DNA from: an uncultured Planctomycetia bacterium
GTDB taxonomy: Bacteria > Omnitrophota > Gorgyraeia > Duberdicusellales > 4484-171
Reading direction: 5' to 3'
Assembly: GCA_964489445.1 (NCBI GenBank)
Contig: CAZAYU010000003.1
Coordinates: 134,715-198,714, forward strand
DNA: 64,000 nucleotides
A program made the position numbers and the translations under genes. This document shows, one piece after another, positions 22,877 through 41,244 of the stretch (the first letter of the stretch is position 1; every line of letters begins with the position of its first letter). The notes under the pieces are model-generated. The model was not told the origin of the DNA, did not search any database, and saw only the letters and a program-made list of their open reading frames with translations.

Positions 22877-23063
22877 AATTTAATATTGTAGCTAAATGTA
22901 TTTAAAAGTAAACATTAATTTAATAATACGTATTATTAAAAATAAGGCATATTGTAGTTTGAAGATGTAGGGAGCTAAATAAAATTTACCAAAAAAATAC
23001 TTGATTAAGTACTTTTATATTGTTAAACTTATATTAAATAATAACTCTAGCAAGGAGGTCAAA

Positions 23064-23963
23064 ATGAAACAGTATCAAAGTATCATTGTTGTAAGTGTTG
23101 TCTGTTTATTTTTATTGTCTGGCTGTGACAGTGTAGAGAAAATATTAAAACCAAAGAAAGAAACGGTTATCAACAATACAAAAGGAATAGAAGGCCCACT
23201 TCTTGCTCAAGTTAATAATTGGAAAATTGGCTTAGGAGATTTTGAGAAAAGATTGCAAACCTTAGAGCCTTTAGCGAAACAGCAAAATTTAGATGTTAAT
23301 GATTATGAATTTAAAAAGCGTGTTCTTGATGAATTAGTGAAGGCGGTGCTTTTGTCCGAAGAGGCAAAGTCTCAAGGGTTTGATAAAAAAAGTGATGTGC
23401 AAGAGGCTCTAGAAGGGTACAAGCAAACTCTTTTAGCGCAGAGTCTTATAGCGGATACTGTAAAAAATATGGATGTAACTGATGTGGAAATTACGAATTT
23501 TTATTCGCAAAACAAAGATTATTTCAAAAGCCCCGAAGAAGTTAGAGTTAAAGAAATAGCAGTTAACAGTGACTCGGAAGCCAAGGACCTATATATTCGA
23601 ATCCTTCAAGGTGAAGATTTCTCTCTTTTAGCTAGCCAGCACTCCGTATCTTCCTCCAAGGACAATGGGGGTGACCTGGGATATATTGTTTATGACGAAA
23701 AGGAAAAATTTTATAAGTTTTGGGAAATAGTGACCGCTTTAGAAAAAGGAGAGATATCCAGTATATTTAAAGGTGAGGATAAGAACTACTATATCGTAAA
23801 ATTAGAAGATAGAAAAGAAGGTAAAGCTACTCCACTTGTTGAGATAAAGGAAGAAATTCGTAGAGTCTTAAAGATTGATAAAGAAAATAAAGGAATTGAT
23901 AATTTAGTTAATACGTCTAAGCAAAATGCCAAAGTTATTATTAATGAAGACTTATTGCAATAA
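23064..23963 (+). CDS. Parvulin-type peptidyl-prolyl cis-trans isomerase (SurA/PrsA-like) with signal peptide/lipobox
   Basis: AAGGAGG SD. Signal 'VVSVVCLFLLSGC'. Parvulin motif 'VRVKEIAVNSDSEAKDL...GGDLGYIV'. Confidence 0.75.
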   Translation: MKQYQSIIVVSVVCLFLLSGCDSVEKILKPKKETVINNTKGIEGPLLAQVNNWKIGLGDFEKRLQTLEPLAKQQNLDVNDYEFKKRVLDELVKAVLLSEEAKSQGFDKKSDVQEALEGYKQTLLAQSLIADTVKNMDVTDVEITNFYSQNKDYFKSPEEVRVKEIAVNSDSEAKDLYIRILQGEDFSLLASQHSVSSSKDNGGDLGYIVYDEKEKFYKFWEIVTALEKGEISSIFKGEDKNYYIVKLEDRKEGKATPLVEIKEEIRRVLKIDKENKGIDNLVNTSKQNAKVIINEDLLQ

Positions 23964-24017
23964 GTCAATTGTGGATTTAGATGGTAGTATTTATTATCAA
24001 TCAATAATTTTAGTAAA

Positions 24018-24932
24018 GTGAAAAAGGCAATACTAAAAATTTGTGTTTTATCCATTTTACTTGTTTTTTCTTTTATTGGATGTGATAATTTTTCTTTTTT
24101 TGACAAATCAGTTAAAAAAAATCCCAAAAATGACCTAGAAAGGCCTTTTGTTAATGGTATTATAATCGCTAAAGTTAACGGGTATCCAATAACTTTAGAG
24201 GATTTAGATGAAGAAATCGAACGATATAATGCCGAAATTCCTTTAGAGCAACAGGAATCAAAAATAACTACCTCTGAGGAAAAGCTTAATTATCTTAAGA
24301 ATGAACTTGTCCAGCGGGTTCTTTTGTATAAGGAAGCCTTAAACAGAGGATTAGATCGTATGCCGGAAGTTCGTAAAGTTATTGAAAAAACTAAAATGCA
24401 AATGTTGGTTTTTCAGCTGATGCAAGAAGAGATGGAAAAAATAAGTGTCAGTTTTGGTGAGATTGAGGAATATTACAACAAATTGCCGGATGAATATAAA
24501 AAAGAGGCGGAGCAGAGAAGAGTAAAAGAAATTGTCGTAAAAAGTCAATCTCAAGCAAAGGATTTATTGATTAAATTATTACAGGGAAATGATTTTTCGT
24601 TTTTAGCTCAGCAGTATTCCATTGTCGATAGCGCTAAAAATGGAGGAGATTTAGGTATAATCAAGCCGGGGGATAAATCTAAAGAATTTGATGAAATAGT
24701 TTTTTCTGAAATGTTAGATGTTGGGCAGGCAAGTAATTTTTTTAAAGGACCCGAAGGATATTATATTGTTAAGATTGAATCTAAGTTAGGGGGAAAACGA
24801 AGAACTCTTAGCGACATGCGGGATGATCTTAAAACTCTTTTAACTATATCTAAACGGCAAAAAATGATAAATGATTTGGTAGGTAATTTATCACGTAATT
24901 CAGTTATTGAAATAGAAGCAGATAGAATTTAA
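24018..24932 (+). CDS. Parvulin-type peptidyl-prolyl cis-trans isomerase, paralog
   Basis: GTG start. Signal/lipobox 'FSFIGC'. Parvulin 'RRVKEIVVKSQSQAKDLL...GGDLGII'. Confidence 0.75.
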   Translation: MKKAILKICVLSILLVFSFIGCDNFSFFDKSVKKNPKNDLERPFVNGIIIAKVNGYPITLEDLDEEIERYNAEIPLEQQESKITTSEEKLNYLKNELVQRVLLYKEALNRGLDRMPEVRKVIEKTKMQMLVFQLMQEEMEKISVSFGEIEEYYNKLPDEYKKEAEQRRVKEIVVKSQSQAKDLLIKLLQGNDFSFLAQQYSIVDSAKNGGDLGIIKPGDKSKEFDEIVFSEMLDVGQASNFFKGPEGYYIVKIESKLGGKRRTLSDMRDDLKTLLTISKRQKMINDLVGNLSRNSVIEIEADRI

Positions 24933-24934: not shown

Positions 24935-25855
24935 ATGGAAAAAAAGAAAATCAGTTTAATCATTGGGGTAGTTTTGAGCATTATGGCAATAGTATTTCTT
25001 AACCTATATTTAAGAGGTGAACGCCAAAAAAATGTTAAGGAGTTAGAAAAAGCATTTGTAGAAAAGTACAAAGATTTAGTTACTGTATTCATTGCGGATG
25101 AGGACATAGAGAAAGGTTCTATTTTAAATGCAAATGTACTGAGTACAAAAATAATTCCGAATAAATATGTTGAGCCGCAGGCGGTTACTTCTTTAGCTAA
25201 AGCCGTTGGGATGAAAGCAGCGGTTCCGATTAAAAAAGAAGAACAAATTACCCTAAGTAAATTAATAAATACAAAAACAACTATGGCTAGATCTTTAGCA
25301 ATGGCAACCCCAGTAGGAAAAAGAGCAATAACTATAAGCGTAGATAGCATAATGGGATTAGCAGGAATGATTGTCCCGGGGGATTACGTTGATGTTATTG
25401 CTTTATTGCCTACCCCTACACAGGGTGCTGATGGAACTCAGACTGTACAAATGGTTAATATTCCTATTTTCCAAAATGTGTTAGTGATTGCGGTAGGCGG
25501 GCAATTGGCAGCTAGACAGGATCAAGGGCAATCATCTTCAGGGTGGGGCTGGGGAGTCCAAAAAAGAACTAGTGAAAAAATTGCGCCATCTCCATTAATT
25601 ACATTAGCGTTAAGTTCACAAGATGCCAGCTTACTTTCTTTTGTTAATGAGCAAGGAAGATTGAGGTTAGTTATTCGCTCTCCTGCTGATGCCAAAATAG
25701 AGCAGATTTCGCCGGCAAGCTGGGAAACTCTTTTTAGCTATATAAATTCACTTATTCCTTCTCAAGATATTAAAGATAAGCATACACCGGTTAAAGCTAA
25801 AAGCGTAGAAATTTATCGGGGGGAAAATAGAGATTCAGTTTATATATCAGAGTGA
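24935..25855 (+). CDS. cpaB: Flp pilus assembly protein CpaB/RcpC
   Basis: N-terminal TM followed by a SAF-like/CpaB domain, directly upstream of the secretin. Confidence 0.75.
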   Translation: MEKKKISLIIGVVLSIMAIVFLNLYLRGERQKNVKELEKAFVEKYKDLVTVFIADEDIEKGSILNANVLSTKIIPNKYVEPQAVTSLAKAVGMKAAVPIKKEEQITLSKLINTKTTMARSLAMATPVGKRAITISVDSIMGLAGMIVPGDYVDVIALLPTPTQGADGTQTVQMVNIPIFQNVLVIAVGGQLAARQDQGQSSSGWGWGVQKRTSEKIAPSPLITLALSSQDASLLSFVNEQGRLRLVIRSPADAKIEQISPASWETLFSYINSLIPSQDIKDKHTPVKAKSVEIYRGENRDSVYISE

Positions 25856-27465
25856 TGAAAAAGATTAATATTTTTATTATTATTTTTTTGCTGATTGTTT
25901 GCTTACCGTTAATAGGCTTTTCTTTGTCTGAACGAGAAGAAATTGTTATTTACCAGGGGCAGATGGAATCTGTTTCTGTTTCTGTTCCGGAAAGGATTGT
26001 TATCGATAAGCCGGAAGTAGTTGATGTGATAAGGGTTGGTAATAACGAAATGCTTTTAAGTGGAAAACAAAAAGGGGAGGCTAAGATTAGTTGGAAGGAT
26101 AATCTTGGTGAGCATAATCTTGATGTTAAAGTTTTAGCCGAAGATGTGGAGAAAATAAAAAAGCGGATTGATGATATTCTAAAAAAAATTGGATCTTCGA
26201 ATATTAAGACGAAAACTATGGAGAATGAGGAAAAGGTTTTTCTTTTGGGTGATGTTAAAGATGAGGTGGATATAGAAAGAATTTTTTTAGCGTTGGGAGA
26301 TTTAAAGGATAAGACAGTTAACCTTGTACAAATAAAACCAGAGGACGCAATGGTTGAGATTTCTGTTCAAATTCTTGAATTTCAAAAAGGAAAAGGAAGA
26401 AACTTAGGGTTTGAACTTCCCAGCTCGATAACTTTTAGTGAAATAAATTCTTCTCTTGGCACATCAGGGCTACCTTTTGGCGGACTTTTTCCGATTAGGT
26501 CATGGGATCGAGATAAGTTCTCTGGAACTTTGAGGTTATTAATTAACGAAGGGAAGGCTAAGGTGCTTTCTCGGCCACGGCTTGCTTGTCGTAGTGGTAA
26601 AGAAGCTGAGCTTTTAGTAGGAGGAGAAATTCCGATAATGACCACCGAGGCTTCCGGTAGCAGTGAAACTCCGGGTACTAATATTGAATATAAAGAATAC
26701 GGGATTAAGTTAAAAATAAGTCCGCAAGTAGTTGACGGTGATAAGATAGATATTTTACTTTCTGTGGAGGTAACAGAGGTTGATGAAGCTGGCCTTCAAC
26801 AGCTGGGAGGCAGTGACAATATAACTGCATCAGCTTATCCGTTTACTAAAAGAAATGTTACTACGGAGCTTTCTTTAAGAAATAACGAAATTTTAGCTAT
26901 TGGTGGATTGATTAAACAGAAAACTCAAGAGGATTTAAAAAAATTTCCTTGGTTAGCTGATATCCCGATTTTAGGTGCCTTCTTTAGGAGTAAAAATGTT
27001 ACTCAAGGCGGGGGAGCTGACGAGAAGGGCGATACTGAATTATTCATTACTCTTTCTCCCAAGATAATTTATCGGGATGGTCAAGATAACCAAAAAAAAA
27101 TAAAAGAATCGTTTCGGGAAGAAACATTAGAGAAAAAAATCAGTCGTTACCACGATAGATCTCATATCCCAGATGAACTACAAAGTTATGTGTTAGCAGT
27201 TAAAAAGATGATATTAAGGGATATTTCTTATCCAGAAGTAGCTTCAAGTAGTGGTTGGGAAGGGAGCTTGCTGATTTCTTTAAAAATTTCTTCCGATGGA
27301 AAACTTAAACAGGCGAAAATTGCTGAGTCTTCGGGAAATAAGATATTTGACCAAGATGCTTTAAATGTGGCTAAAGCAGTAAAATACCCCCCCTTTTATT
27401 ACTATAAGATAAGTCTAGAAGAGATAAACTTAGAAATACCTATAGTGTACAAGCCTACGAAATAA
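25852..27465 (+). CDS. cpaC: Tad-type secretin (CpaC/RcpA) fused to a C-terminal TonB_C-like domain
   Basis: Secretin domain 'VLSRPRLACRSGKEAELLVGGEIPI...LAIGGLIKQKTQEDLKKFPWLADIPILGAFF'. C-terminal ~90 aa 'DISYPEVASSSGWEGSLLISLKISSDGKL...SSGNKIFDQDALNVAKAVKYPP' resembles the TonB C-terminal domain. Confidence 0.82.
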   Translation: MMKKINIFIIIFLLIVCLPLIGFSLSEREEIVIYQGQMESVSVSVPERIVIDKPEVVDVIRVGNNEMLLSGKQKGEAKISWKDNLGEHNLDVKVLAEDVEKIKKRIDDILKKIGSSNIKTKTMENEEKVFLLGDVKDEVDIERIFLALGDLKDKTVNLVQIKPEDAMVEISVQILEFQKGKGRNLGFELPSSITFSEINSSLGTSGLPFGGLFPIRSWDRDKFSGTLRLLINEGKAKVLSRPRLACRSGKEAELLVGGEIPIMTTEASGSSETPGTNIEYKEYGIKLKISPQVVDGDKIDILLSVEVTEVDEAGLQQLGGSDNITASAYPFTKRNVTTELSLRNNEILAIGGLIKQKTQEDLKKFPWLADIPILGAFFRSKNVTQGGGADEKGDTELFITLSPKIIYRDGQDNQKKIKESFREETLEKKISRYHDRSHIPDELQSYVLAVKKMILRDISYPEVASSSGWEGSLLISLKISSDGKLKQAKIAESSGNKIFDQDALNVAKAVKYPPFYYYKISLEEINLEIPIVYKPTK

Positions 27466-27467: not shown

Positions 27468-29639
27468 ATGACAAAAACAATTGCAATTTATAGCACAAAA
27501 GGCGGTGTAGGTAAGACTACGGTGTCTGTAAATACTGCTTTAAGTCTTTCTTTGAAAAAAAAGAAAGTACTGCTTTTAGATTTAGACTTGGGAGCCCCTT
27601 TGGATATTGCAAAAATGTGTGGCGTTAAGCCTAAAAAGGGAATGGTTGATCTTTTATCAGTTTGGGATAAGGTGAAAAATGATGAAGAAGCCTTAAGGGT
27701 AACTTTTTTTACTCAAATTAATCCTTATTTTCATTTTTTACCGGCGGCAATATCTTCAAGAGCAGTAGCTCATTTAAATGCTGAGTCTATAAGGGGCATA
27801 TTAAAAGCTCTTAAATCTTTCAGTTATGAGTACATCATCATTGATGGAGGATTGAATCTTACTGATATTTTAATCGAGATATTTGATTCTGCTAATGTAA
27901 TTTCTTTAGTGCTTACTCCAGATATTCTTTCATTGTATCAAACAGAATGGATATTAGATACTCTTCAAAGTTTAGGTTTTCCTTTAAGTATGATAAAAGC
28001 AGTGATTAACCGTTCAGAAAGTAAAGGTAGCGTAAGTGCTTTTGAGATTAAACTTCTTTTGCCTATAGAGATTATTTGTACTATTCCTTCTGATGGAAAA
28101 ACTGTGGGCATGGCTTTAAATAGAGGAATTCCTGTAGTTTTGGATTCACCACATAGTCGAATTAGTTTGGCAATAGGTTCTTTAAGTGACGTAATCATCA
28201 AGAGAGAGGACATGTATATATCCCATAAAGATCTGTCTAGCTTAAGGATAAAAGATAGTGCTATTAAAGAAGACACTAAAACTGATCTATGGAGCCGGTT
28301 GGGATTAATGGAACCGTTAAGAGAGGTAAAAATACAAAGAGAAGAGGATATTATTATTGATTTAAAAAAGAAATTACATTCTCAGCTAATAAAAGAAATG
28401 AATCTAAAACGAATGGCGGTTGGCATGATGAATGCAAATGTCGAACAGGCAAGAAAATTAAGGCAAGATGCGGAAAAGATTTTAAGTAATATTTTAGCAA
28501 AAGAAACTGGCGGATTTATTTCTTCTTATGAGGTTAGGCAGAAATTAATTAATGAGATTGTTGATGAAAGCCTGGGTTTGGGTCCTCTAGAGGAATTAAT
28601 AGCTGATCCTCAAATTACAGAAATAATGGTTAATAATAAAAATAGAATTTATGTAGAAAAAAAGGGAAAGATTTATTCTACTAGTAAAAGATTTACTTCT
28701 AATACCCAAGTGCGTACAGTTATTGAAAGAATTTTGGCACCTTTAGGAAAAAGAATTGATGAATCTTCTCCTTATGTTGACGCTCGTCTTCCCGATGGCT
28801 CAAGAGTAAATGCAATAATTCCACCCTTAAGTTTAACAGGGCCGACCTTAACTATAAGGAAATTTGCCAAACAAAGGCTCGGAATAAATGAGTTAGTGAC
28901 AGATTACAATAGCTTAAGTCAAGAAATGGCTACTTTTTTAAAAGCGTGTGTGACTTCACGAAAAAATATTTTGGTAACCGGAGGAACGGGGTCTGGGAAA
29001 ACTACTTTTCTTAATATTCTATCCGAGTTTATTCCTGATCGTGAAAGAATTATTACTGTTGAGGATTCAGCTGAGCTGAAACTTCACCATCATCATTGGA
29101 TAAGGCTAGAGTCAAAACCACCAAATATTGAAGGTAAAGGGCAAATTACAATAAGAGATTTATTTAAAAACACTTTACGCATGCGGCCGGATAGAATTGT
29201 GGTTGGTGAATGCCGGGGTGGGGAAGTTTTAGATATGCTCCAGGCTATGAATACTGGCCATGATGGAAGCATGTCTACGATTCATGCTAATTCTACTCAT
29301 GATGTATTAATGAGGCTGGATAGCATGATTTTAATGAGTGGTATAGAGCTTCCGATACGCGCGATTAGGGAGATGATTTCTTCGGCTTTAGATTTAATTG
29401 TCCATACAGCTCGCTTAAGTGATGGAACAAGAAAGGTTATCCAGATTACTGAAGTTGGCGAAATGGTTGGTGAAACGAACGTGGATCTCAAAGATATATT
29501 TGCTTTTAGACAAAAAGGTATAGATAATGATGGTGTTGTAAACGGTTCTTTTTATCCCACCGAGTATATTCCTTCTTTTTATGAGGAAATCTGTGTGAAA
29601 GGCATTGATTTGCCTAAAGAAACATTTCAGAAAAAATAA
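27468..29639 (+). CDS. Fusion of CpaE/TadZ (ParA/MinD-like ATPase) and CpaF/TadA (secretion ATPase)
   Basis: N-terminal 'IAIYSTKGGVGKTTVS' deviant Walker A. C-terminal half has Walker A 'GGTGSGKTT', 'VGECRGGEVLDMLQAMNTGHDGSMSTIHANS' (VirB11/CpaF family). Confidence 0.85.
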   Translation: MTKTIAIYSTKGGVGKTTVSVNTALSLSLKKKKVLLLDLDLGAPLDIAKMCGVKPKKGMVDLLSVWDKVKNDEEALRVTFFTQINPYFHFLPAAISSRAVAHLNAESIRGILKALKSFSYEYIIIDGGLNLTDILIEIFDSANVISLVLTPDILSLYQTEWILDTLQSLGFPLSMIKAVINRSESKGSVSAFEIKLLLPIEIICTIPSDGKTVGMALNRGIPVVLDSPHSRISLAIGSLSDVIIKREDMYISHKDLSSLRIKDSAIKEDTKTDLWSRLGLMEPLREVKIQREEDIIIDLKKKLHSQLIKEMNLKRMAVGMMNANVEQARKLRQDAEKILSNILAKETGGFISSYEVRQKLINEIVDESLGLGPLEELIADPQITEIMVNNKNRIYVEKKGKIYSTSKRFTSNTQVRTVIERILAPLGKRIDESSPYVDARLPDGSRVNAIIPPLSLTGPTLTIRKFAKQRLGINELVTDYNSLSQEMATFLKACVTSRKNILVTGGTGSGKTTFLNILSEFIPDRERIITVEDSAELKLHHHHWIRLESKPPNIEGKGQITIRDLFKNTLRMRPDRIVVGECRGGEVLDMLQAMNTGHDGSMSTIHANSTHDVLMRLDSMILMSGIELPIRAIREMISSALDLIVHTARLSDGTRKVIQITEVGEMVGETNVDLKDIFAFRQKGIDNDGVVNGSFYPTEYIPSFYEEICVKGIDLPKETFQKK

Positions 29640-29780: not shown

Positions 29781-29810
29781 TTGTTTTTTTAATAATTTAT
29801 ATGTTATACT
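29781..29810 (+). promoter_or_regulatory. Putative sigma70-like promoter (-35 TTGTTT, extended -10 TGtTATACT), copy A
   Basis: The sequence 'ttgtttttttaataatttatatgttatact' is nearly identical to 'ttgtttttttcttcatatatatgttatatt' at 41206-41236. Confidence 0.5.
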
Positions 29811-29814
29811 TTAA

Positions 29815-29905
29815 GCGTCACCTAAGGGAGGCGACGAAAAAGGCAATTTGCTGGAGTTTTGTAAAAAGCGAAGGCGAAGCGCAAAGCCACGGGTTCCAAA
29901 AAGTT
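29815..29905 (+). ncRNA. c-di-GMP-I (GEMM)-like riboswitch/leader, copy A (tentative)
   Basis: Conserved core 'GCGCAAAGCCACGGgtTCCAAAAA' is shared with copy B and resembles the Vc2 riboswitch junction 'GACGCAAAGCCUCCGG'. Upstream 'taaggg' plus hairpin. Followed by an intrinsic terminator. Confidence 0.4.
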
Positions 29906-29973
29906 AAGAGTTCAAAAGTCATAGTTTATATTTTGGACAAAATGTAAATTAGAGTTTGAACTAAATAGGAAAT

Positions 29974-30013
29974 AGCCGGGCTGCCGTCAGAAAAAGGCAG
30001 TCCGGTTTTTTTA
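29974..30013 (+). terminator. Intrinsic terminator / attenuator hairpin directly upstream of the first flp gene
   Basis: 'CCGGGCTGCC gtcagaaaaa GGCAGTCCGG' is a 10-bp stem (one G.U) followed by TTTTTTT. The ATG of the pilin gene lies 7 nt downstream. Confidence 0.6.
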
Positions 30014-30019
30014 TTAGAT

Positions 30020-30232
30020 ATGAGTAAAACAATGAAAAACCAATTATTTAAAGAAAGAGAATCACAAGCTGTTTTAGAATATACGATTCTTTTTGCAATT
30101 GTAGTCGCTGCTTTAGTTAGCTCATTGTTTTTAGCTAATGGGGGTAATACGCTAAAGAGTAATTTTTTGGATATGACAGAAGCTATGGCCGGAGATTCTT
30201 TAGAAAATTCTACTATTGGAGGATGGGATTAA
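30020..30232 (+). CDS. flp: Flp/Fap family pilin 1
   Basis: Class III signal 'ESQAVLEYTILFAIVVAALV' (xxxxEY plus hydrophobic stretch). Confidence 0.7.
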   Translation: MSKTMKNQLFKERESQAVLEYTILFAIVVAALVSSLFLANGGNTLKSNFLDMTEAMAGDSLENSTIGGWD

Positions 30233-30233
30233 A

Positions 30234-30389
30234 ATGATTAAAAAAAGCAAGGCCCAGAGCATTGTGGAATATGCATTGTTATTTAGTGTGATTTCTGCTG
30301 CTTTAATTGCAATGACTACTTATATTCAACGTTCAGTAAATGCCAAGTTAAAGGTGATCCAGGAGGAATTATACGAATCAAGTCGGTAA
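30234..30389 (+). CDS. flp: Flp family pilin 2 (51 aa, below the ORF-track cutoff)
   Basis: Self-translated: MIKKSKAQSIVEYALLFSVISAALIAMTTYIQRSVNAKLKVIQEELYESSR. The Flp motif is 'AQSIVEY'. Confidence 0.6.
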   Translation: MIKKSKAQSIVEYALLFSVISAALIAMTTYIQRSVNAKLKVIQEELYESSR

Positions 30390-30405
30390 AAAAAAGGAGG
30401 AGAAG

Positions 30406-30588
30406 ATGAAAAGAAGGGTAAAGGCGCAAAGCATTTTAGAGTATACAATTATTTTGGCGGCAATTGTGGGTGCGGTTGTTCTTGGTGCTAAACTAATTGG
30501 TGGTAGAGTACAGCAGGGTTTTACAGATGCTGGTGATGTTCTTACTGATGCGACAAGTGATTTTAAAACTCATTTTACTAGTCTGTAA
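30406..30588 (+). CDS. flp: Flp family pilin 3
   Basis: 'KAQSILEYTIILAAIVGAVVLGA'. SD AAGGAGGAG upstream. Confidence 0.75.
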   Translation: MKRRVKAQSILEYTIILAAIVGAVVLGAKLIGGRVQQGFTDAGDVLTDATSDFKTHFTSL

Positions 30589-30652
30589 AAAATAATAAGT
30601 GAGGTGAGTTGTCAAAGGGCTATAGAATAAAAAAGTATAAAAGGAGGTAAAG

Positions 30653-31021
30653 ATGTTAATTGAATCAAAAAAAAGATGGGTAAGACGCGCACAATCAACG
30701 GTAGAATATGGAATTCTCATTGGGGTTATTGTAGGTGCTGCAGTAGCGATGCAGACTTACGTTAAACGTTCACTACAAGCAAGACAAAAAGACAGCTCCG
30801 ATTTACTTACCAGCATGACTGGAACGGTTGATGTAGGCTCTGTAAGCGGAACTTTAGCAACAACCAATCAGTATGAGCCATATTATCTTAGTCGTAATCA
30901 AACAGATACACTATCTGTGGATACAGTTAATAAAGCTGTTACTGCCGGTGGCGCTGCAACTGCTACCAAGGCGAATACTTCTAAAAGTGATTCTACGATG
31001 GGGTATACGGTGTCTAGATAA
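30653..31021 (+). CDS. flp: Flp family pilin 4 (extended C-terminal Thr/Ser-rich tail)
   Basis: 'RAQSTVEYGILIGVIVGAAVAMQTYVKRSLQ'. SD AAGGAGG. Confidence 0.72.
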   Translation: MLIESKKRWVRRAQSTVEYGILIGVIVGAAVAMQTYVKRSLQARQKDSSDLLTSMTGTVDVGSVSGTLATTNQYEPYYLSRNQTDTLSVDTVNKAVTAGGAATATKANTSKSDSTMGYTVSR

Positions 31022-31087
31022 AAAAATTATAATGGGATGTGAGAATGTTAAGCGTAAGTTTATTTGGAAAACAAAGAAGGAGGGGGC

Positions 31088-31408
31088 ATGTTAACAAAAT
31101 TAAGAAAGGGTCAATCTAGCTTAGAATATGCTGCTTTAATTGGTGTAGTCGTGGGAGCGGTTGTTCTGATGAGTACGTATATGCGGCGCTCAGTTGAAGG
31201 TAGTCTTAGGGAGAATTCGGATAGTATTGGCGATCAGTATAGTTATGAAAATGGAAGTTATAGTTATTCAAAGACTTTAGAAGCACCTGAAGTATCTCTA
31301 ACTACTGTAACAACCGATGGAACTGATACTGGTGGTGGAAACACTAGCCAATCTAGAACAGGACAAAATCGGGCAGTACTCGAAACAGTTACTGCCGCTG
31401 CAGAGTGA
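31088..31408 (+). CDS. flp: Flp family pilin 5 (ATG at 31088; the track ORF starts at TTG 31064)
   Basis: 'KGQSSLEYAALIGVVVGAVVLMSTYMRRSVEG'. SD GAAGGAGGGGG upstream of the ATG. Confidence 0.7.
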   Translation: MLTKLRKGQSSLEYAALIGVVVGAVVLMSTYMRRSVEGSLRENSDSIGDQYSYENGSYSYSKTLEAPEVSLTTVTTDGTDTGGGNTSQSRTGQNRAVLETVTAAAE

Positions 31409-31516
31409 AACAATTAATGCTAACTTGATGATATTTTTTTTGGCTATTCTCAAGATGGACATAGAGAATAAAAAATATGGTGAGAAGCAATTTTTAACTA
31501 CAAGAAGGTATCAAGC

Positions 31517-31840
31517 ATGATCGGAAAATTAAAAAAAGGAAGATTCTTTTTAGAATATGCGGCATTAACCGCAATAATTGTTATTGCGGTTCTTGGGATG
31601 CAAACTTATTTAAGAAGAGCTTTTTCCGGTCGATTTCGGGAACTTTCTGATCAAGTCGGCGATCAATATGATCCGCAAGCCGTTAACGGGACTAAGACAG
31701 TTGTTATTTCTAGTGCTGTTGATGAATATATGGTTTATGCAGACATAGATAGTGATGGTGAAAATGAATATGCCGGAAGTCGAGTTCATTCTATAAATGA
31801 GCAAACATTTAATTCAACTGAAACAATTACTAAACCGTAA
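31517..31840 (+). CDS. flp: Flp family pilin 6
   Basis: 'KGRFFLEYAALTAIIVIAVLGMQTYLRRAFSG'. Confidence 0.7.
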   Translation: MIGKLKKGRFFLEYAALTAIIVIAVLGMQTYLRRAFSGRFRELSDQVGDQYDPQAVNGTKTVVISSAVDEYMVYADIDSDGENEYAGSRVHSINEQTFNSTETITKP

Positions 31841-31910
31841 ATGTAGTGGTTTTAGGTTTAAGCGTTATTGGGTTGATTGTATCTATGTGAGGTAAAAACA
31901 AGAGGAAGAT

Positions 31911-32348
31911 TTGAAGAATAAAGGCCAAAGCTTAACTGAATATGTATTGATTTTATCTGTAGTTCTATCCGCTGTTATTGGAATGGAGGTATATGCTAAA
32001 CGGGCTATTCAGGCTAAAGTCAAAGATTTAACCGATTTATGTATTGCTTCCAAAGATAGCCACTTAGATAATACGACCGAGATCATTCCTCTTTTAGATG
32101 CAGCATCTGGAAAAATAACTGCCTCAGAATCTCATATTAAGAAAACTATTACAGAAACCCCCACAGATATGACTTTTACTAAAGGAACCGCTGACGGTGA
32201 GAGTTTTTATTTATATTCTGAAAGCGAATATCAAAGCAAAGACCCGGATGAAGAAGTATCTACTGCAGGTACGGGTTCTGAAGGTGCTCTTGCTGTATCT
32301 GGAATAAAAATTGGGCAAATTTCCAGTCGTTTTCCAACTGGTGAATAA
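31911..32348 (+). CDS. flp: Flp family pilin 7 (TTG start)
   Basis: 'KGQSLTEYVLILSVVLSAVIGMEVYAKRAIQAK'. SD AGAGGAAG. Confidence 0.65.
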   Translation: MKNKGQSLTEYVLILSVVLSAVIGMEVYAKRAIQAKVKDLTDLCIASKDSHLDNTTEIIPLLDAASGKITASESHIKKTITETPTDMTFTKGTADGESFYLYSESEYQSKDPDEEVSTAGTGSEGALAVSGIKIGQISSRFPTGE

Positions 32349-32349
32349 A

Positions 32350-33375
32350 ATGAAGTTTTTTCCTTGTAATCAAAAAAAATCACAAGCTATTCTAGAAATA
32401 GGGATATTAGGTTCGATAATTCTTTTGGTAACCTTTCAATTAGTTTCTTATGTTCAGCGTTCAAATGACCAGCAATATTTAACAATGAAAACATTTCGCG
32501 ATAGTTTGGATAAAGCTCACTTTGGCAGCTGTGTGGTTATTCAAGATGTTAGTGCTGATCCTATAGTCCAAAGCTGGCCTTGCAGCGATCCGGCTCCTTC
32601 TGGCTACAAAGGTCCTTATTCAAAAGGGGGAAGTGTTACGCTTAATGAGATAGAGCATCGGCGTCAAGCTAGCGGTGATTTTTCGCGTAAAGGACAAAGA
32701 ACGGTTTTTTCTTCAGGGAGTAATATTTATTGGGGCGTTCCGTTTATTGATTATGAAATCGGAGAAGAAGAAATAGATGTAACCGTAAATAATTTAGGGC
32801 ATTACGAAATTTATAATATAAATGATCACCAATATAGTTTTGTCGAATACTATGACCAGGATTCGGATGGCTATAATGATTGGGTAGATGATGACATCGA
32901 TGGTGATGGAATACTTAATGTCGATGATGACGATGCAAACGGTGATGGGATTGACGATGATTTTGCCAGAGATAATTCTGGAATGAATGATGATTTAGAC
33001 TCAGATGGAATACCTAATTGGAAAGATGATGATGCAAATGGGAATGGGATTGACGATAAAGATGAAAGCCCTAGGATTGAAATGATTATGAATTATCAGG
33101 ATCGTTGGAAGCAGACCAGTCAAAAATCAGAAACGTCGTCTTCCACGATTAATAACTATATTCTTGCTTCTAAAGATGGGAGTTCTTATTCCGAAGGTGT
33201 AAGTATAAATTTTTATGATCGCAGCAATCCGGTTAATAAGATTTTAGGTGACGGTAATGATCTTCCTTTAGCGGAAAGCAATAATCAGTATCTGACATTT
33301 GAAGATGGAAAGTATAAGTATAGCATTGATGTAAAAGGAGTAAATCGTGCTAGTAAGTGGTCCACAAATAAGTAA
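32350..33375 (+). CDS. TadE-like minor pilin/pseudopilin with Asp-rich (thrombospondin-type-3 / calcium-binding-like) repeats
   Basis: N-terminal 'KKSQAILEIGILGSIILLVTF' (SQxxxE class III-like signal). Central 'DDDIDGDGILNVDDDDANGDGIDDDF...DLDSDGIPNWKDDDANGNGIDDKDE'. Confidence 0.6.
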   Translation: MKFFPCNQKKSQAILEIGILGSIILLVTFQLVSYVQRSNDQQYLTMKTFRDSLDKAHFGSCVVIQDVSADPIVQSWPCSDPAPSGYKGPYSKGGSVTLNEIEHRRQASGDFSRKGQRTVFSSGSNIYWGVPFIDYEIGEEEIDVTVNNLGHYEIYNINDHQYSFVEYYDQDSDGYNDWVDDDIDGDGILNVDDDDANGDGIDDDFARDNSGMNDDLDSDGIPNWKDDDANGNGIDDKDESPRIEMIMNYQDRWKQTSQKSETSSSTINNYILASKDGSSYSEGVSINFYDRSNPVNKILGDGNDLPLAESNNQYLTFEDGKYKYSIDVKGVNRASKWSTNK

Positions 33376-33456
33376 GTTTGCGGTTGCTAGTTTGGAGTTG
33401 AGAGATGAAAGATAGAGGAAAAGTCTATAGAATATAATTTTGAGTTACTGCAATCT

Positions 33457-34470
33457 ATGAACTTTAATGAAGGATACATAAAGATGGACAAACATAAGAG
33501 AGCTAACTCTCAAGTGGTAATTGAATTAGTAGTTGGGTTTATTGTGATAGTTTTGTTTTTTTTGGGAGCAAGTCGAATCTGGGTTTGGTCTAATGCTCAG
33601 GTTGTGGGAAGAAGTCCCGCTTATAAGGAAAGTCGGATTTCTGCTGGTAATACACATCCGGGATTTTGGGGAAATACAGGTGAAGAAGGAGTGTATACTC
33701 CCAAGGAATTAACTGACGGATGGGTTTTTGGTGAGGATGCTTCTTCCGGTAGCTCAGCTGTAGTCAATATACCTAACTCTGGTAATCCCACTAAGTTAAA
33801 CTTTGTTGCTGCTAAAGCTTTACAAAATGAAATTAATGATGATAAAAATAAATGGAAGGACTGGGTCGATGTTGATCCTACTGATCCAGCAGCTATTCAA
33901 AATGCAATTAATGAAGTAACTGAGGCAATAACTGAAATGGAAGCAGATATTACTATTATTGAAGATTGGAGAGATAAATGGCAAAACTGGTATGATTTAG
34001 CAGTAGCGGGAATCTCTCAAGCTAATAATGATATAATTTATTGGCAAGGGCGGGTAAGTTATCATTGCCCTTGCACTCCTTCTGAATGGGATGATTGCAG
34101 TAATTGTGAAGAGGCTACTGCTCGATTGGCAGTTGCCAAAGATGGTGGACGTCACGTTTGGGATCCTGATGAAGGAGAGTGGGGAGAATATGTTTATGAT
34201 CCTTCTCAAGCTTGGATGAGTACTTGGGCAACAAGATCTGAGTTTGCGGATGATTACTATTTATGCCAGATTGCTGGAAGCTATTATGCTTCAAAAAATA
34301 GGTATGTTCAGGAAGCCTGGATTCCTGGACTATCAGATTGGCAGGAAAGAGAAATAATAGCTCAAGTTAAGAGAGATGAATGGCAAGATAGTTTAGATGA
34401 AGCAAATGATGGATTAGATGAACTAAAAAAAATAAAAGCTGATTTAGAAGCAATGCTTGCAGCATTGTAG
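33457..34470 (+). CDS. TadE/TadF-like pseudopilin (probable start at ATG 33484)
   Basis: 'KRANSQVVIELVVGFIVIVLFFLG' class III-like N-terminus, then a large Trp/Asp-rich globular region. Confidence 0.55.
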   Translation: MNFNEGYIKMDKHKRANSQVVIELVVGFIVIVLFFLGASRIWVWSNAQVVGRSPAYKESRISAGNTHPGFWGNTGEEGVYTPKELTDGWVFGEDASSGSSAVVNIPNSGNPTKLNFVAAKALQNEINDDKNKWKDWVDVDPTDPAAIQNAINEVTEAITEMEADITIIEDWRDKWQNWYDLAVAGISQANNDIIYWQGRVSYHCPCTPSEWDDCSNCEEATARLAVAKDGGRHVWDPDEGEWGEYVYDPSQAWMSTWATRSEFADDYYLCQIAGSYYASKNRYVQEAWIPGLSDWQEREIIAQVKRDEWQDSLDEANDGLDELKKIKADLEAMLAAL

Positions 34471-34593
34471 CGGGTAAAGCTAGAATTTGTATTTTAAAAT
34501 ATTTAATTATTTTAGTTTATTCTAATAGCCTGAACTTTGTGTTGTTGATTATAGAATTGTAAATAAGGTGAGTTTAAGTTATAATAATACAAA

Positions 34594-36126
34594 ATGTTTA
34601 TATTTTTTGCCCAAAATAAGAATGCCTATGGCCGTATATTCAAGAAAGCCCAATTAGCCCCCCTGTTTATTGCTTTGATTACTATTATTATAATTGCGGC
34701 AATGATTACAGTTAATTTAAATAAAATTGCAATTACTAAAACGCATACTGCTAATGCAGTTGATGCTGGAGCTATTGCTGCAGCATCGCAAATGGCGTTT
34801 GCATTCAATCTTTTAGCTACTCAGGCTATGGGCATGTATGCGACTTATCAGGCTTCTACGACAGCCAGCAATCTTCTTTTAGATTATGCGGATGAAGATT
34901 TAGATTTAACAGTTTCGTTGGTAGCATCCGGAAACGCGTTGATAACAATTGCTGGAGCGTTGGCTTGTGTTCCCTGGGCTGGAAAATATATTGGTCCGGC
35001 GCTTTTGAAGGCAGGTATTATTTTGCTGTCTATTGGGCAATATTTCTTTGCCATGGTAGGTGCTGATATGACTGCGGCTGAAGATACGATTGAAGGTCTC
35101 TACGAAGGGCAGCTTGCAACTTATCTCGGCAGTGACTTAGAATATCCTTCCGACGATACAGAAGATGGAAGTAACGAGACTGACGATGACAAAGATGACG
35201 CGGATAATATTGAAGATGATGAAAGTGATGATATTGGAATGCGGGAGTCAATGGATGAAAATATTAAATCTGCTCGAGATATGGCCTACGACTACAATTT
35301 TTTAAACAGTGGGATAACCGAAAAATTAAATCCGGATTTAGATAAGGATGGTGAGCTAGCCGAAGACGCAGCCGGAAATAAGATTAACCCCAGTCAGGGA
35401 GTTGAATTTTCTTATCACGTATCAGATAAAGATACTCCGCAGGAATTTAAATGGAAAGACGGACAAAAGCGCGATCATTTAGTCAATGTAGATGTAAAAT
35501 TAGATGATGTTGTGCGCTATCAATTTATTAGAACCAAGGCGAATAAAGATGAAATTGATGGATATTTCAAGGATTTTTGGATTACTTACACAGCAATTTC
35601 AGTGGCTTTTGCTGTTGCAGATGCATATCTTTTAAGTTTATTTGCTACTGCTAGCAGCACACCAGATTGTGGTTGGTGGTTTTATATTTATCCTGTTGGG
35701 TGTACAGGTCCATTAGCTTGTGTAGGGTGGACTGCTGCAGTGATAATGGCAATTGCTGAATTCATAGCAATCTTTGGAGGTTATGCTTTGCTTAGTTCAC
35801 TTGTGGATGATATAAGAGAAGGTATTTCTGAGGGTGGAACATTTTGGGATGATGACGGGGATATTGGAAATAATTTTATTGTGACCTTGAATGATGTTGA
35901 CCATTCTCGGGAAATAGAGACTACTACTTTTCAAGAACACGCGGGACAGGATATGGGGTTATGGGAGGCAAAATATCCAAAAGTAAAATCCCAGAGCTGT
36001 GCTAGTTTTGCTTGTAATCCTGATGACCCGGATTGTTCGGGTACTTGCTCTACTTGCAGTTGTCTTAACGGAAAAAATCCTTGTGTAAATCATGATCCGG
36101 TGCTTGTGGGGGTAGATGAGTTTTAA
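34594..36126 (+). CDS. TadG-like Flp pilus assembly protein (membrane anchored, acidic linker, Cys-rich C-terminus)
   Basis: N-terminal 'LAPLFIALITIIIIAAMITVNLNKIAITKTHTANAVDAGAIAAAS' resembles the TadG N-terminal domain. D/E-rich stretch 'SDDTEDGSNETDDDKDDADNIEDDESDD'. C-terminal multi-Cys cluster. Confidence 0.55.
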   Translation: MFIFFAQNKNAYGRIFKKAQLAPLFIALITIIIIAAMITVNLNKIAITKTHTANAVDAGAIAAASQMAFAFNLLATQAMGMYATYQASTTASNLLLDYADEDLDLTVSLVASGNALITIAGALACVPWAGKYIGPALLKAGIILLSIGQYFFAMVGADMTAAEDTIEGLYEGQLATYLGSDLEYPSDDTEDGSNETDDDKDDADNIEDDESDDIGMRESMDENIKSARDMAYDYNFLNSGITEKLNPDLDKDGELAEDAAGNKINPSQGVEFSYHVSDKDTPQEFKWKDGQKRDHLVNVDVKLDDVVRYQFIRTKANKDEIDGYFKDFWITYTAISVAFAVADAYLLSLFATASSTPDCGWWFYIYPVGCTGPLACVGWTAAVIMAIAEFIAIFGGYALLSSLVDDIREGISEGGTFWDDDGDIGNNFIVTLNDVDHSREIETTTFQEHAGQDMGLWEAKYPKVKSQSCASFACNPDDPDCSGTCSTCSCLNGKNPCVNHDPVLVGVDEF

Positions 36127-36247
36127 TAAGGTTAAAGGTTAAAGGAAAAAGTGAGAAAGGGGAAAATTAAGACTTAATGTTTAGTGGAGATTAAAAATGC
36201 TACTAACATTTAATTTTGACTTAAATGAGAAGTAGAGAGGAGGGCAA

Positions 36248-37150
36248 ATGGGTTCTAATCCCGGTAAAGTTTTTAGTGTAACTGCGGTTTTTATTCTTTT
36301 TATTTTTTCTGTTTTTGCTCAGAGTGTAAAAACGGATATCGATTTAGGCAAAATACCTTTACCTCCAGGTTCCCGTGCTTTAGAAATTCCTTTACCGAAG
36401 GTAGGCAATTCTAGCGCAGACACTGTTTATTATAAAACTGTTTTAGACACGAGAAAGTTGATAAGCTTTTATACTAAAGAATTATCCAGAAGAGGATGGG
36501 AGAACAAAGAGAATGCTTTAGAAGCAATTAAAAAAATTAATGTTCCTTTTGATAAACAATATAAAGGGGTTGATGTTGAAGGTTTGCTAAAAAATATGAT
36601 TTATTTTTATAAGAATGAGCAGACATTGATGTTGATGATAATTCCTCCCCGCGGTAGACATACAGAGACAATTTTTACTCTTTCTTACATTGGTGGTGCT
36701 TTTTTTAATCAGGGATCTAGCCAATCTCAAAGTAGTGAACTACCTTCTTCAATTCCTATTTATCCACAGGCTGAATTTATGTCTCGAGTTTTGAAGACTC
36801 GCATTTATACTATAGGAAATAAAGGAATCAATGAGGTAATTAATTTCTATAAACAAAAAATGCCGGTTTCTGGATGGATATTACAAAACGAAACGCCAAT
36901 AACCGAAGAAATAATAGATACTTCTTCTGCTTTTGATAATGAATCTAATTGTAAAACTTGCCCTAAGCCAAAAACCATTTCTCTTCAAGTTATTAATGAG
37001 CTTAAGAAAGGGATTTCTATTTTAAAATCGGAACTTTATTTTACTAATGGAATGGGGGAAAAATGTAAATTACAGTTTAGTAAAATGCAAAGCATAGCCT
37101 TGCCTTCTCCTACTCAACTTACTATAATATATGATAAGGGAAGAAAATGA
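36248..37150 (+). CDS. Secreted hypothetical protein of the tad locus
   Basis: Signal peptide 'VFSVTAVFILFIFSVFAQS'. No recognisable domain. Confidence 0.5.
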   Translation: MGSNPGKVFSVTAVFILFIFSVFAQSVKTDIDLGKIPLPPGSRALEIPLPKVGNSSADTVYYKTVLDTRKLISFYTKELSRRGWENKENALEAIKKINVPFDKQYKGVDVEGLLKNMIYFYKNEQTLMLMIIPPRGRHTETIFTLSYIGGAFFNQGSSQSQSSELPSSIPIYPQAEFMSRVLKTRIYTIGNKGINEVINFYKQKMPVSGWILQNETPITEEIIDTSSAFDNESNCKTCPKPKTISLQVINELKKGISILKSELYFTNGMGEKCKLQFSKMQSIALPSPTQLTIIYDKGRK

Positions 37151-37335
37151 GTCTAAAGATATTTTGTAAAGCGCAATCGACTATTGCTTATGTAGCTATG
37201 GCTACATTTTTAATTAGTGCTATGATTGCGGTTTCTTTTTATTTTCGCCGGTCTTTGCAGGGAAAATATCGTGAGTCAGTAGATGTATTCGGAGAAGGTG
37301 TTCAGTATGAACCGGGAATGACTTCTGTTGAGTAG
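37147..37335 (+). CDS. Divergent Flp-like pilin paralog (Glu to Ala at +5)
   Basis: 'KAQSTIAYVAMATFLISAMIAVSFYFRRSLQGK' is similar to pilin 4 'RAQSTVEYGILIGVIVGAAVAMQTYVKRSLQAR'. Its start overlaps the upstream stop by 4 nt. Confidence 0.5.
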   Translation: MSLKIFCKAQSTIAYVAMATFLISAMIAVSFYFRRSLQGKYRESVDVFGEGVQYEPGMTSVE

Positions 37336-37365
37336 TTAGTTTAAACTTATAAACAAACAGTAATA

Positions 37366-38208
37366 ATGCTTTTATTAATAATAATTCTTTTGTTGGCTGG
37401 GGTAGTTTTCTTAAGTTATTGCTTTATTCCTTCCCTTTTGGCAAAATCTGAGAATCTAAGAGATAAAAGGACCAAAGAGACTATCGATAAATTGGAAGGT
37501 GCTTTTATTTTTATTAGCAGCAGGAAGTTAAATATTGTCTATGTAGTTCTTCCTTTTATATTTGGGTTTCTCGGGTTTTTCCTTTTTAAATTTCCAGGTT
37601 TAATCATTGGCGTAGTAGTAAGCGGAATTATGCCATTGGTGATAACAAAAATGATTGTTGCTAAACGGAAAAAAAAGTTTGATTCGCAAATTGTCGATAA
37701 TTTGATGATTATTTCTAGTTGTCTTAAGGGAGGTTTAAGCTTGCTACAATCGCTAGAGACTGTTGCTGAAGAAAGCCCTATACCTTCTTCAGAAGAGTTT
37801 AGTTTGATAGTTAATGAAGTCAAAGTGGGCGTTTCTTTAGAGGACGCGATGATTAGTCTTAATAAAAGGATGCGGTCGGATGATTTGGATTTGGTTATTT
37901 CTTCAATGCTGGTGTCTAGGGAAACCGGGGGAGATTTAACAAAAGTCTTTTCCCGTTTGATTTCTACTATTCGCGATCGGCGGGAAATAAAAGATATGGC
38001 TAATACCTTAACCCTTCAAGGAAGAGCTCAGGGAATAATTATGTCTGCAATCCCTCCCTTGTTTGTGGTGATAATCATGAAATCTAACCCTCATCATTTT
38101 GATGTTTTGCTTCGAGATGAGACTGGAAAAATACTTTTGTTTGCTGCAGTAATTATGCAAATATTGGCCTTATTTTTCATTAAAAAGTTTAGTTCGGTTA
38201 AAGTATGA
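37366..38208 (+). CDS. tadB: Flp pilus assembly inner-membrane platform protein TadB (T2SSF family)
   Basis: T2SS-F-like domain, multipass membrane protein, paired with the downstream TadC. Confidence 0.8.
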   Translation: MLLLIIILLLAGVVFLSYCFIPSLLAKSENLRDKRTKETIDKLEGAFIFISSRKLNIVYVVLPFIFGFLGFFLFKFPGLIIGVVVSGIMPLVITKMIVAKRKKKFDSQIVDNLMIISSCLKGGLSLLQSLETVAEESPIPSSEEFSLIVNEVKVGVSLEDAMISLNKRMRSDDLDLVISSMLVSRETGGDLTKVFSRLISTIRDRREIKDMANTLTLQGRAQGIIMSAIPPLFVVIIMKSNPHHFDVLLRDETGKILLFAAVIMQILALFFIKKFSSVKV

Positions 38209-39065
38209 TAATTATTTTAATTTATTCTTGTATATTTCTAGCGTTGTTTTTTGTTATTCGTTCTTTTTTCATTGAAGACTTATCACAAGTTTCAATAATT
38301 ACTGCCAAGAGAACGTTTCACGGAAAATTTTTAAAATTGTTAGCGCCGCTGACAGCGGTCAACACTATAATCCTAAAACCTTTTCCTCGTATAAAAAAAA
38401 CGTTGGATGCTAAGCTTACTTTTGTAAGATGGGATTTAACTGCCCCGGAATTTTTGTTTATAAAAGAGGTATTAATTGTTTTAGGGATAATAGTAGTTTT
38501 CCTTTATTTTCCTAAAAATTATATATTTATAGTCCTGATGGTCGTTTCTGGCTTTCTTATTCCGGATATAATATTAAAGTCTAAGGTAACTGGCAGAAAG
38601 AATGATATTGTTAGAGTTTTACCGGAAACAGTTGATTTATTATGCCTTTGTGTGAGCGCAGGGTTAGATTTTATTTCAGCGACAAGATGGATTATCGCTA
38701 AAGCCCATTCTAATCCTATGGTTGAAGAATTAAAGTTAACGTTAGAAGAAATTAAAGTTGGCCGGCCAAAAATAGAGGCTTTGCGCCAGATGGCTAAGCG
38801 TTTAGACATACCGCAGGTAAGTACTTTTATCCGTAGTCTTATTCAGGCGGAAAAAATGGGGACATCCATTGAGGAAACTTTTACGATAATTTCTGATGAT
38901 GTACGGAGTCAACGTTCTTATCAAGGTAAAAGAGAAGCAATGAAAGCCTCTCTAAAAATGCTCATTCCTCTTATTTTATTTATCCTTCCGATAATTTTAA
39001 TTATTGTTGCCGGACCAGTACTGTTGGAGTTTTTACGCGGCGGGGTTGGCAAAATCAGCCACTAA
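38205..39065 (+). CDS. tadC: Flp pilus assembly platform protein TadC (T2SSF family)
   Basis: T2SS-F-like domain 'LPETVDLLCLCVSAGLDFISA...ALRQMAKRLDIPQV'. Its stop TAA at 39063-39065 abuts the IS element. Confidence 0.8.
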   Translation: MIIILIYSCIFLALFFVIRSFFIEDLSQVSIITAKRTFHGKFLKLLAPLTAVNTIILKPFPRIKKTLDAKLTFVRWDLTAPEFLFIKEVLIVLGIIVVFLYFPKNYIFIVLMVVSGFLIPDIILKSKVTGRKNDIVRVLPETVDLLCLCVSAGLDFISATRWIIAKAHSNPMVEELKLTLEEIKVGRPKIEALRQMAKRLDIPQVSTFIRSLIQAEKMGTSIEETFTIISDDVRSQRSYQGKREAMKASLKMLIPLILFILPIILIIVAGPVLLEFLRGGVGKISH

Positions 39066-39183
39066 TGGGGACACGACACTTAACTATTGTTTATTTTTTT
39101 TGGCCCAGGTTTGTCACGGCGCACTAATGGGGACACGACACTTAACTATTGTTTATTTTTTTTGGCCCAGGTTTGTCACGGCG
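39060..39183. repeat. Perfect 62-bp tandem duplication (x2) at the left end of the IS200-like element
   Basis: 'cactaatggggacacgacacttaactattgtttattttttttggcccaggtttgtcacggcg' at 39060-39121 repeats exactly at 39122-39183. Confidence 0.85.
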
Positions 39184-41236: not shown

Positions 41237-41244
41237 ATATTGTA

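Follow-up and report, generated by a model that had tools for sequence, protein, structure and literature searches.

Two noncoding leaders in a 64-kb stretch of DNA (G+C content of 36%; termed the window here) from an Omnitrophota contig (CAZAYU010000003.1) raise the question of whether an array of Flp-like pilin genes and a giant open reading frame (ORF) are controlled by the same second messenger. Leader A (29781-30012, + strand) lies before the Flp array and leader B (41206-41414, + strand) before the giant ORF, and an earlier note, made from the sequence, had proposed that each carries a promoter, a cyclic di-GMP (c-di-GMP) riboswitch, and a terminator. We found that both leaders contain class I c-di-GMP (GEMM-I) aptamers by sequence and structure membership, and we estimate a probability of roughly 0.8 that the two act as c-di-GMP-responsive ON switches, with more confidence for the aptamer of leader B (copy B) than for that of leader A (copy A).

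Shared elements and family identity of the two leaders

The two leaders could be aligned over their entire length with an identical order of elements, namely, a promoter-like box, an aptamer, and a terminator. The 28-nucleotide (nt) promoter-like boxes, at 29781-29808 and 41206-41233, agree with the pattern TTGTTTTTTTnnTnATnTATATGTTATA at 24 of 24 specified positions, and with up to three mismatches allowed, these two were the only matches in the window, versus 0.00 expected from shuffles. The core GCGCAAAGCCACGG occurs exactly twice in the window (29879 and 41279; 0.13 expected), and the 3′ element AGCCGGGCTGCCG was also found twice without a mismatch, at 29974 and 41363, being followed in both copies by CAGTCCGG and then 7 to 8 T residues. 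The common element order, the near-identical box, and the conserved core that the earlier note had described were all recovered where it had located them.

At gathering thresholds, Rfam 15 yielded a single match in the entire window, copy B, which scored 47.2 bits on the c-di-GMP-I model RF01051 (gathering score of 35) at 41247-41377 and across the full model (1-87), in keeping with the likeness to the Vc2 aptamer that had been claimed for this copy. For copy A, the best match was RF03167 (c-di-GMP-I-GGC), a model of the same clan, at 29833-29989 with 32.6 bits; its E value was 5.6 × 10−6 in a local scan of 401 nt and 8.9 × 10−4 window-wide. On RF01051, copy A scored lower than this, and that match was suppressed, while copy B reached 48.8 bits on RF03167, such that both copies fall below the gathering score of 59 for that model. 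The GGC model probably ranks first for copy A because P1, which is present in both copies, is also modelled there. When the entire window was scanned permissively, GEMM-clan matches appeared at sites A and B only, and a reading of the leaders as c-di-GMP-II aptamers was rejected, since no match to RF01786 was listed window-wide at an E value of ≤1. Finally, a tailored covariance model, built from 22 related aptamers, identified exactly two sites in the window, copy B with 89.9 bits and copy A with 46 bits.

The Vc2 residues contacting c-di-GMP are G20, A47, and C92, and an interhelical C-G pair linking P2 with P3 has also been named as universally conserved (PMC4744006). We took this pair to be C44-G83 in Vc2 numbering by our own mapping of the Vc2 sequence, a positional assignment made without a three-dimensional model. 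Model alignments placed G20 at G29842 in copy A and G41257 in copy B, A47 at A29883 and A41283, and C92 at C29984 and C41373, and by position C44/G83 would correspond to C29880/G29975 and C41280/G41364 (all + strand); every one of these residues is present in both copies. Position 20 is a G in each copy and not the A20 that marks GEMM-Ib aptamers for 3′3′-cyclic GMP-AMP (3′3′-cGAMP), and position 47 is an A, reading GCAAAGCC, and not the G47 (GCGAAGCC) of the GGC variant.

Related loci, given L-numbers below, were obtained from a pattern scan of species genomes or from metagenome and assembly comparisons. When 185,579 species genomes were scanned, the pattern GCAAAGCCACGG-N60-90-CCGGGCTGCC was found at 57 loci, most of which are evident GEMM-I aptamers; their source groups include Anaerolineae, Omnitrophota, and Planctomycetota. 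Thus, long P3 extensions are common among GEMM-I aptamers of many phyla. Among 70 aligned relatives, 97.7% of the cells were paired, versus 82.8% in shuffles and 22 to 47% with the partners slid, and compensatory (two-sided) changes occurred at 12 of the 18 pairs, a level reached by none of 500 shuffles; these values come from a model-fitted alignment, and the proximal P3 pairs are largely fixed in the 57 pattern-collected loci. An Infernal search against Rfam and a covariation analysis had been named in the earlier note as checks on its proposal, and both spoke in its favor, with copy B above the RF01051 threshold and copy A as a significant, sub-threshold match within the same clan.

Aptamer folds, overlapping terminators, and predicted switching

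As indicated by the RF03167 match, our tailored model, and an unconstrained fold, the c-di-GMP-I type aptamer of leader A occupies 29833-29988 (+ strand). It consists of a P1 of 4 base pairs (bp) at 29833-36/29985-88 (GACG/CGUC), a G-C and a C-G pair at 29843-44/29881-82, a 6-bp P2 at 29847-52/29873-78 that continues beyond a 3 × 3 internal loop into 5 further bp (29856-60/29865-69) capped by GUAA (29861-64), and a P3 with a long distal hairpin at 29885-97/29968-82. The earlier suspicion that the pairing of copy A might be degenerate was not borne out by this fold, and copy A, as modelled, is not degenerate. An alternative register for its P2, 29847-52/29867-72, was rejected, being about 10 kcal/mol worse and leaving an 8-nt linker. 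In leader B, the aptamer spans 41244-41382 (+ strand) according to RF01051, the tailored model, and the fold, with P1 at 41248-51/41374-77 (UUCG/CGAA; extendable to 41244-47/41379-82 across one bulge), P2 as a plain 6-bp hairpin at 41263-68/41272-77 with a UAA loop, and P3 at 41285-97/41358-71.

The two copies differ in P1, P2, and distal P3 with pairing preserved. The closing helix P1 covaries between them (GACG/CGUC in A versus UUCG/CGAA in B), and past the AG bulge, copy A has U-A as the third P3 pair where copy B has C-G, while a CC-AAAAA internal loop in P3 and a distal P3 extension of 64 to 75 nt are common to both. Both resemble Vc2 and RF01051 in their three helices, the GGCAA...GCAAAGCC...GCC core, G20, A47, C92, and the interhelical C44-G83 pair. 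They differ from these in the distal P3 extension, which is shared with relatives from many phyla, and in that the GAAA tetraloop and its receptor were not identified, as copy A carries GUAA on an elongated P2 and copy B carries UAA.

In the orthologous leader L001, which scored 37.5 bits on RF01051 and hence over the threshold, an even longer insertion is located at the site of the extended P2 of copy A. Relatives also possess outer P1 helices, whose complementary sequences differ considerably: GAGGC/GUCUC in L001 and L037, AAGGA/UCCUU in L047, and UUUCCCG/CGGGAAA in L013. The 5′ segment GGGAGGCGACGAAAA(A)GGCAAU (29826-29847 in the window) is common to leader A and the L001 leader, and the downstream partner of the GAGGC-GUCUC outer P1 is absent in leader A. 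Depending on the transcription start, the GACG of P1 in copy A might instead pair with a CGUC located farther 5′ (29816-19).

Each aptamer leads directly into an intrinsic terminator. Terminator A (29976-30012, + strand) has a 10-bp stem at 29976-85/29996-30005 followed by U7 at 30006-12 (−19.9 kcal/mol), and terminator B (41365-41414, + strand) has an outer stem at 41365-72/41399-406, an inner stem, and U8 at 41407-14 (−22.8 kcal/mol). The terminator call relies on folding; owing to their loops of more than 8 nt, both were missed by a simple terminator scanner. In both copies CCGGGCUGCC serves at once as the 5′ arm of the terminator and as the 3′ strand of the aptamer: in A the arm overlaps the 3′ strand of P3 (29976-82) together with C92 (29984) and, at 29985, the first P1 nucleotide on that side, and in B the 5′ arm (41365-72) and the inner stem overlap the 3′ strands of P3 and P1. 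The strong shared terminator noted earlier therefore stood with regard to its stem and U-tract, but it is not a separate downstream element. Since the 5′ arm lies inside the aptamer, the aptamer and terminator folds are mutually exclusive, which predicts c-di-GMP-dependent read-through, i.e., an ON switch. For RNA ending just 5′ of the 3′ arm of the terminator, the unconstrained minimum-energy fold was the P1-P2-P3 aptamer in both copies, whereas the full leaders folded as terminators (−64.2 kcal/mol for A and −57.8 kcal/mol for B, versus −51.1 and −39.6 kcal/mol with the aptamer enforced). A direct overlap of aptamer and terminator was also found in the related leaders L001, L012, L029, L037, L047, and L054. 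The U-tract of copy A ends at 30012, close to an ATG at 30020 (or 30032, as called in public assemblies), and that of copy B ends at 41414, with the ATG of the giant ORF at 41531.

Upstream of the aptamers, promoter-like box A (29781-29810, + strand) comprises a −35-like TTGTTT at 29781-86 and an extended −10 element, TGTTATACT, at 29802-10, and box B (41206-41235, + strand) comprises TTGTTT at 41206-11 and TGTTATATT at 41227-35. From these elements, transcription would start near 29817 in A and near 41242 in B, and P1 begins 12 to 22 nt 3′ of the −10 hexamer. The motif TGnTAnAnT was seen just 5′ of the aptamer in eight related leaders, and L001, L013, L029, L037, L047, and L054 have it at the equivalent place. 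In addition, all three genes immediately 5′ of leader B run in the opposite direction, so the giant gene requires a promoter of its own. The reading of both boxes as sigma-70-type promoters with an extended −10 is thus well supported by the retention of this element in related leaders, on which the call relies, and by the opposite-strand genes. A simple promoter scanner missed both promoters because their −35 elements agree at only 3 of 6 positions. Contigs of the same genome from other samples carried an identical leader A, and in one public assembly of that genome a 48-residue gene was called atop aptamer A (29801-29947 in the window, + strand; 5334-5480 in L058), a call that is almost certainly spurious.

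Taken together, these features suggest the following mode of action. As the RNA emerges, the three-helix aptamer would form before the terminator; with c-di-GMP bound, P1 and P3 would be held, the 5′ arm of the terminator would be withheld, and RNA polymerase would read through, whereas without the ligand the much more stable terminator hairpin would displace the aptamer and transcription would stop at the U-tract. Leader A would thereby gate the Flp-pilin, minor-pilin, and tadBC genes, including read-through from the upstream rcpC-secretin-ATPase genes, and leader B would gate the giant gene, such that a rise in c-di-GMP would induce the giant surface protein along with the pilus subunits. 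We infer ligand binding and the extent of the operons, and we infer the direction of regulation from structure only.

Recurrence in related genomes and alternative explanations

Both placements of the riboswitch, before an Flp array and before a giant gene, recur in other genomes. The window ATPase, encoded just upstream of leader A, is 71% identical to that of L001, an Omnitrophota metagenome-assembled genome (MAG), and 62% identical to that of L047, and both loci show the order T2SSE ATPase, one ORF of about 470 amino acids (aa), riboswitch, and Flp-like genes; in L037 and L012 the riboswitch is likewise 5′ of Flp-like genes. The ATPase match to L001 suggests that the window comes from a member of the Omnitrophota. 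In L054, which was found via the DNA-pattern scan, a riboswitch of 53.4 bits (over the Rfam threshold) lies 5′ of a giant-gene homologue whose product has the same C39-like domain and is 34% identical to the N terminus of the giant ORF over 923 aa (E value of 3 × 10−161). In L029, similarity to the giant ORF is limited to the first ~40 residues.

Some Flp-associated leaders deviate from the two copies in the window. Those of L037 (2479-2639, − strand) and L047 (4581-4735, − strand) have AA for AG at the P3 bulge (G83 to A), with C44 unaligned and scores below the Rfam thresholds, and G20, A47, C92, and the design of the terminator are unchanged in them; the two may represent a variant subclass. 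Position 20 is an A, the signature associated with cGAMP-type (GEMM-Ib) specificity, in the long-P3 GEMM-I aptamers L034, L042, L046, and L048, which come from Bipolaricaulota, Thermotogae, Acetomicrobium, and Chthonomonadales MAGs. L015, L034, L042, L028, L008, and L006 each have two to four GEMM-I aptamers that form a tandem or lie near one another on the same strand.

Several observations weigh against reading both leaders as functional c-di-GMP switches. Copy A, though statistically significant, lies under the gathering scores of both RF03167 and RF01051, with a P1 of just 4 bp and an atypically long P2. The P2 loop of copy B is UAA and hence not a GNRA loop, and a tetraloop receptor was not identified in P3 of A or B; docking of a GNRA tetraloop on P2 into a receptor in P3 is a property of type 1 GEMM-I aptamers only, not of type 2. 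The terminator folds are 13 to 18 kcal/mol more stable than the aptamer folds, and therefore switching would need to be kinetic. No GGDEF, EAL, HD-GYP, or PilZ domain was found in the scanned window proteins, a scan that covered residues 1 to 7,489 of the giant ORF and from which some ORFs, such as 17407-18042, were left out. Furthermore, a metagenome scan with the ATPase protein yielded three loci, two of them full length with 60 to 61% identity (L063 and L064), and in these two another gene directly follows the ATPase and no riboswitch is present, which indicates that the placement is not universal.

An alternative is that leader B alone works, with leader A holding a decayed aptamer that serves as a constitutive attenuator or terminator between the ATPase and pilin genes or being controlled in some other way. 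Its 32.6 bits against the 59 of RF03167, with a lower score still on RF01051 (threshold of 35), its long, irregular P2 and short P1, and the sub-threshold scores and loss of G83 in the Flp-type leaders L037 and L047 would agree with such decay. Yet all ligand-contacting and universally conserved residues are intact in copy A, its P2 is well formed and GNRA capped, nascent RNA adopts the aptamer as its minimum-energy fold when unconstrained, the extended P2 recurs in the orthologous L001 leader that passes RF01051, and the differences between A and B keep the pairing. On balance, we regard decay of leader A as unlikely.

It is very unlikely that the two aptamers sense another ligand, such as 3′3′-cGAMP as in GEMM-Ib, or a variant ligand, given that both copies bear G20, A47 (in GCAAAGCC and not GCGAAGCC), and C92, the canonical c-di-GMP signature. 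GEMM-I variants with altered specificity do exist, A20 occurs in some unrelated loci of our collection (the four named above), and the best Rfam match of copy A is the GGC-variant model, all of which would fit a different ligand. A further explanation, a dispersed repeat (an element like a repetitive extragenic palindrome [REP] or a mobile promoter cassette) without sensor function, would account for the near identity of promoter box and terminator between the copies and for the IS200-type transposase gene near copy B. However, the 64 kb contain just two copies, each sense-oriented in a 5′ leader, their conserved parts are the aptamer core and the expression platform, as in riboswitches of other phyla, and P1, P2, and distal P3 diverge yet keep pairing. 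The earlier note had named a REP-like repeat as an outcome that would overturn its proposal; with just two window copies, both at gene starts, we rejected that reading as scarcely credible.

Genes around the leaders and relation to known systems

The reading of both leaders as c-di-GMP-responsive ON switches would place a pilus system and a giant protein under common control, and the genes behind the leaders are those that had been claimed, i.e., seven Flp-like pilin genes after leader A and a giant ORF after leader B. Upstream of leader A, domain scans identified two Rotamase_2 peptidyl-prolyl isomerases (22983-24932), RcpC/CpaB (24935-25855, + strand), a secretin with a C-terminal TonB_C domain (25852-27465, + strand), and a fusion of a TadZ-like domain and a T2SSE ATPase (27468-29639, + strand), with the ParA/MinD-like (TadZ-like) domain at the N terminus. 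Downstream of it are the seven Flp-like pilin genes (30020-32348, + strand; motif [ASG]Q[AS]x[ILVT]EY), larger pilin-like and TadE/G-like genes (32311-37335, + strand), and two T2SSF genes resembling tadB and tadC (37366-39065, + strand). All genes of 30020-39065 are on the + strand and closely spaced, and from this spacing they would form one operon.

Between the tadC-like gene and leader B, genes for an IS200/Y1 transposase, a MazE-type antitoxin, and a PD-(D/E)XK protein (39142-40922, − strand) look like an insertion at the usual junction of secretion system and giant gene. The giant ORF (41531-64000, + strand) exceeds 7,490 codons, is open at the window end, and encodes a Peptidase_C39-like domain at residues 174-256; a search of its residues 1-500 against a protein database gave no match at an E value of ≤0.001. 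It is preceded by a 32-codon ORF, MRNKKMKMNILGNLCYLYSIYTFNFFLTIQDK (41436-41534, + strand), with AGGA 5′ of its ATG. The stop codon of this ORF overlaps the ATG of the giant gene (ATGA), which has no visible Shine-Dalgarno sequence, an arrangement that suggests translational coupling of the two. The 32-codon ORF as a conserved leader peptide was rejected, since it has no counterpart in L054 or L029, and its status is uncertain. In L029 (~3004-3016) and L054 (~2924-2938), the stretch from the terminator to the start of the giant gene contains a G-rich motif, GGGGAAAGGGG, where at the comparable site the window (41466-41477) has only TTGGGGAATTTG.

The predicted design has precedents. Bc2 of Bacillus thuringiensis is a c-di-GMP-I ON switch that works by termination/antitermination before cap (PMC4933901; PMC11218506). 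As in the leaders described here, a class I aptamer is followed by an intrinsic terminator beside an ORF, and the Bc2 target cap encodes a large surface adhesin (collagen adhesion protein), whereas the window belongs to another phylum and has the design duplicated with a matching promoter at two transcription units. In Clostridioides difficile, c-di-GMP read-through at Cdi-2-4, a class II riboswitch before pilA1, activates type IV pilin and adhesin genes (PMC6200980), and riboswitch-driven read-through is predicted for the pilin genes here too. In that organism, however, the ON switches are class II and class I switches are mostly OFF, while the class I aptamers here are predicted to be wired ON, and the pili there are of type IV rather than the Tad/Flp type. 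Since both c-di-GMP riboswitches before pili or adhesins and class I ON switches are documented, the arrangement is ordinary for riboswitch biology.

For giant genes of Omnitrophota, a neighborhood of Rotamase_2, rcpC, gspD, gspE, gspF, and class III signal-peptide genes has been described, in which the secretion/pilus cluster is followed by a giant gene that encodes an N-terminal C39 domain (West-Roberts et al. 2023, bioRxiv 10.1101/2023.11.21.568195), and the window locus agrees with this architecture of cluster and C39 giant gene. In that work, giant genes are tied to c-di-GMP solely by PilZ genes located downstream and by GGDEF domains that some giant proteins contain; by contrast, no PilZ gene and no GGDEF domain could be seen in the present window. 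The word riboswitch is absent from the 2023 giant-gene preprint and from a 2026 complete-genome preprint, and a literature search combining Omnitrophota, giant, and riboswitch found no paper. Thus, the link between riboswitch and giant gene appears to be unreported, as an absence in searchable texts and not as proof of novelty.

Neither how Omnitrophota giant genes are regulated nor their function is addressed in the 2023 and 2026 preprints, and the leaders offer a testable regulatory handle. They predict that the giant gene and the adjacent pilin operon are co-regulated and transcribed only at high c-di-GMP; the leaders could be tested in vitro without culturing the host, and in metatranscriptomes the signature would be transcripts ending at the U-tracts versus read-through. 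That the pilin operon and the giant gene may form one functional module, as the earlier note argued, fits the conserved synteny. Its label of a predation apparatus would derive from the literature on such loci and not from the present evidence, a role in attachment to and degradation of prey cells having been deduced from domain content and synteny in the 2023 and 2026 preprints. It is conceivable, although we think it improbable, that the twin ON riboswitches are the transcriptional arm of a c-di-GMP circuit widespread in Omnitrophota. If so, engaged giant proteins, many of them GGDEF bearing (West-Roberts et al. 2023), would raise c-di-GMP, which would feed back positively through the leaders on the giant gene and the pilin operon, so that cells would commit to attachment or predation either fully or not at all. 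A weaker possibility, drawn from the extended or divergent P2, the loss of G83 in some, and the scores of most below the Rfam threshold, is that the Flp-type leaders constitute a distinct aptamer subclass with altered binding.

At the left end of the window, a second giant ORF is represented by its C-terminal 2,712 codons (3-8138, + strand; open at the left end), with tetratricopeptide (TPR) repeats near its end and its leader outside the window, and the genes after it are housekeeping genes such as queA and fusA and not PilZ genes.

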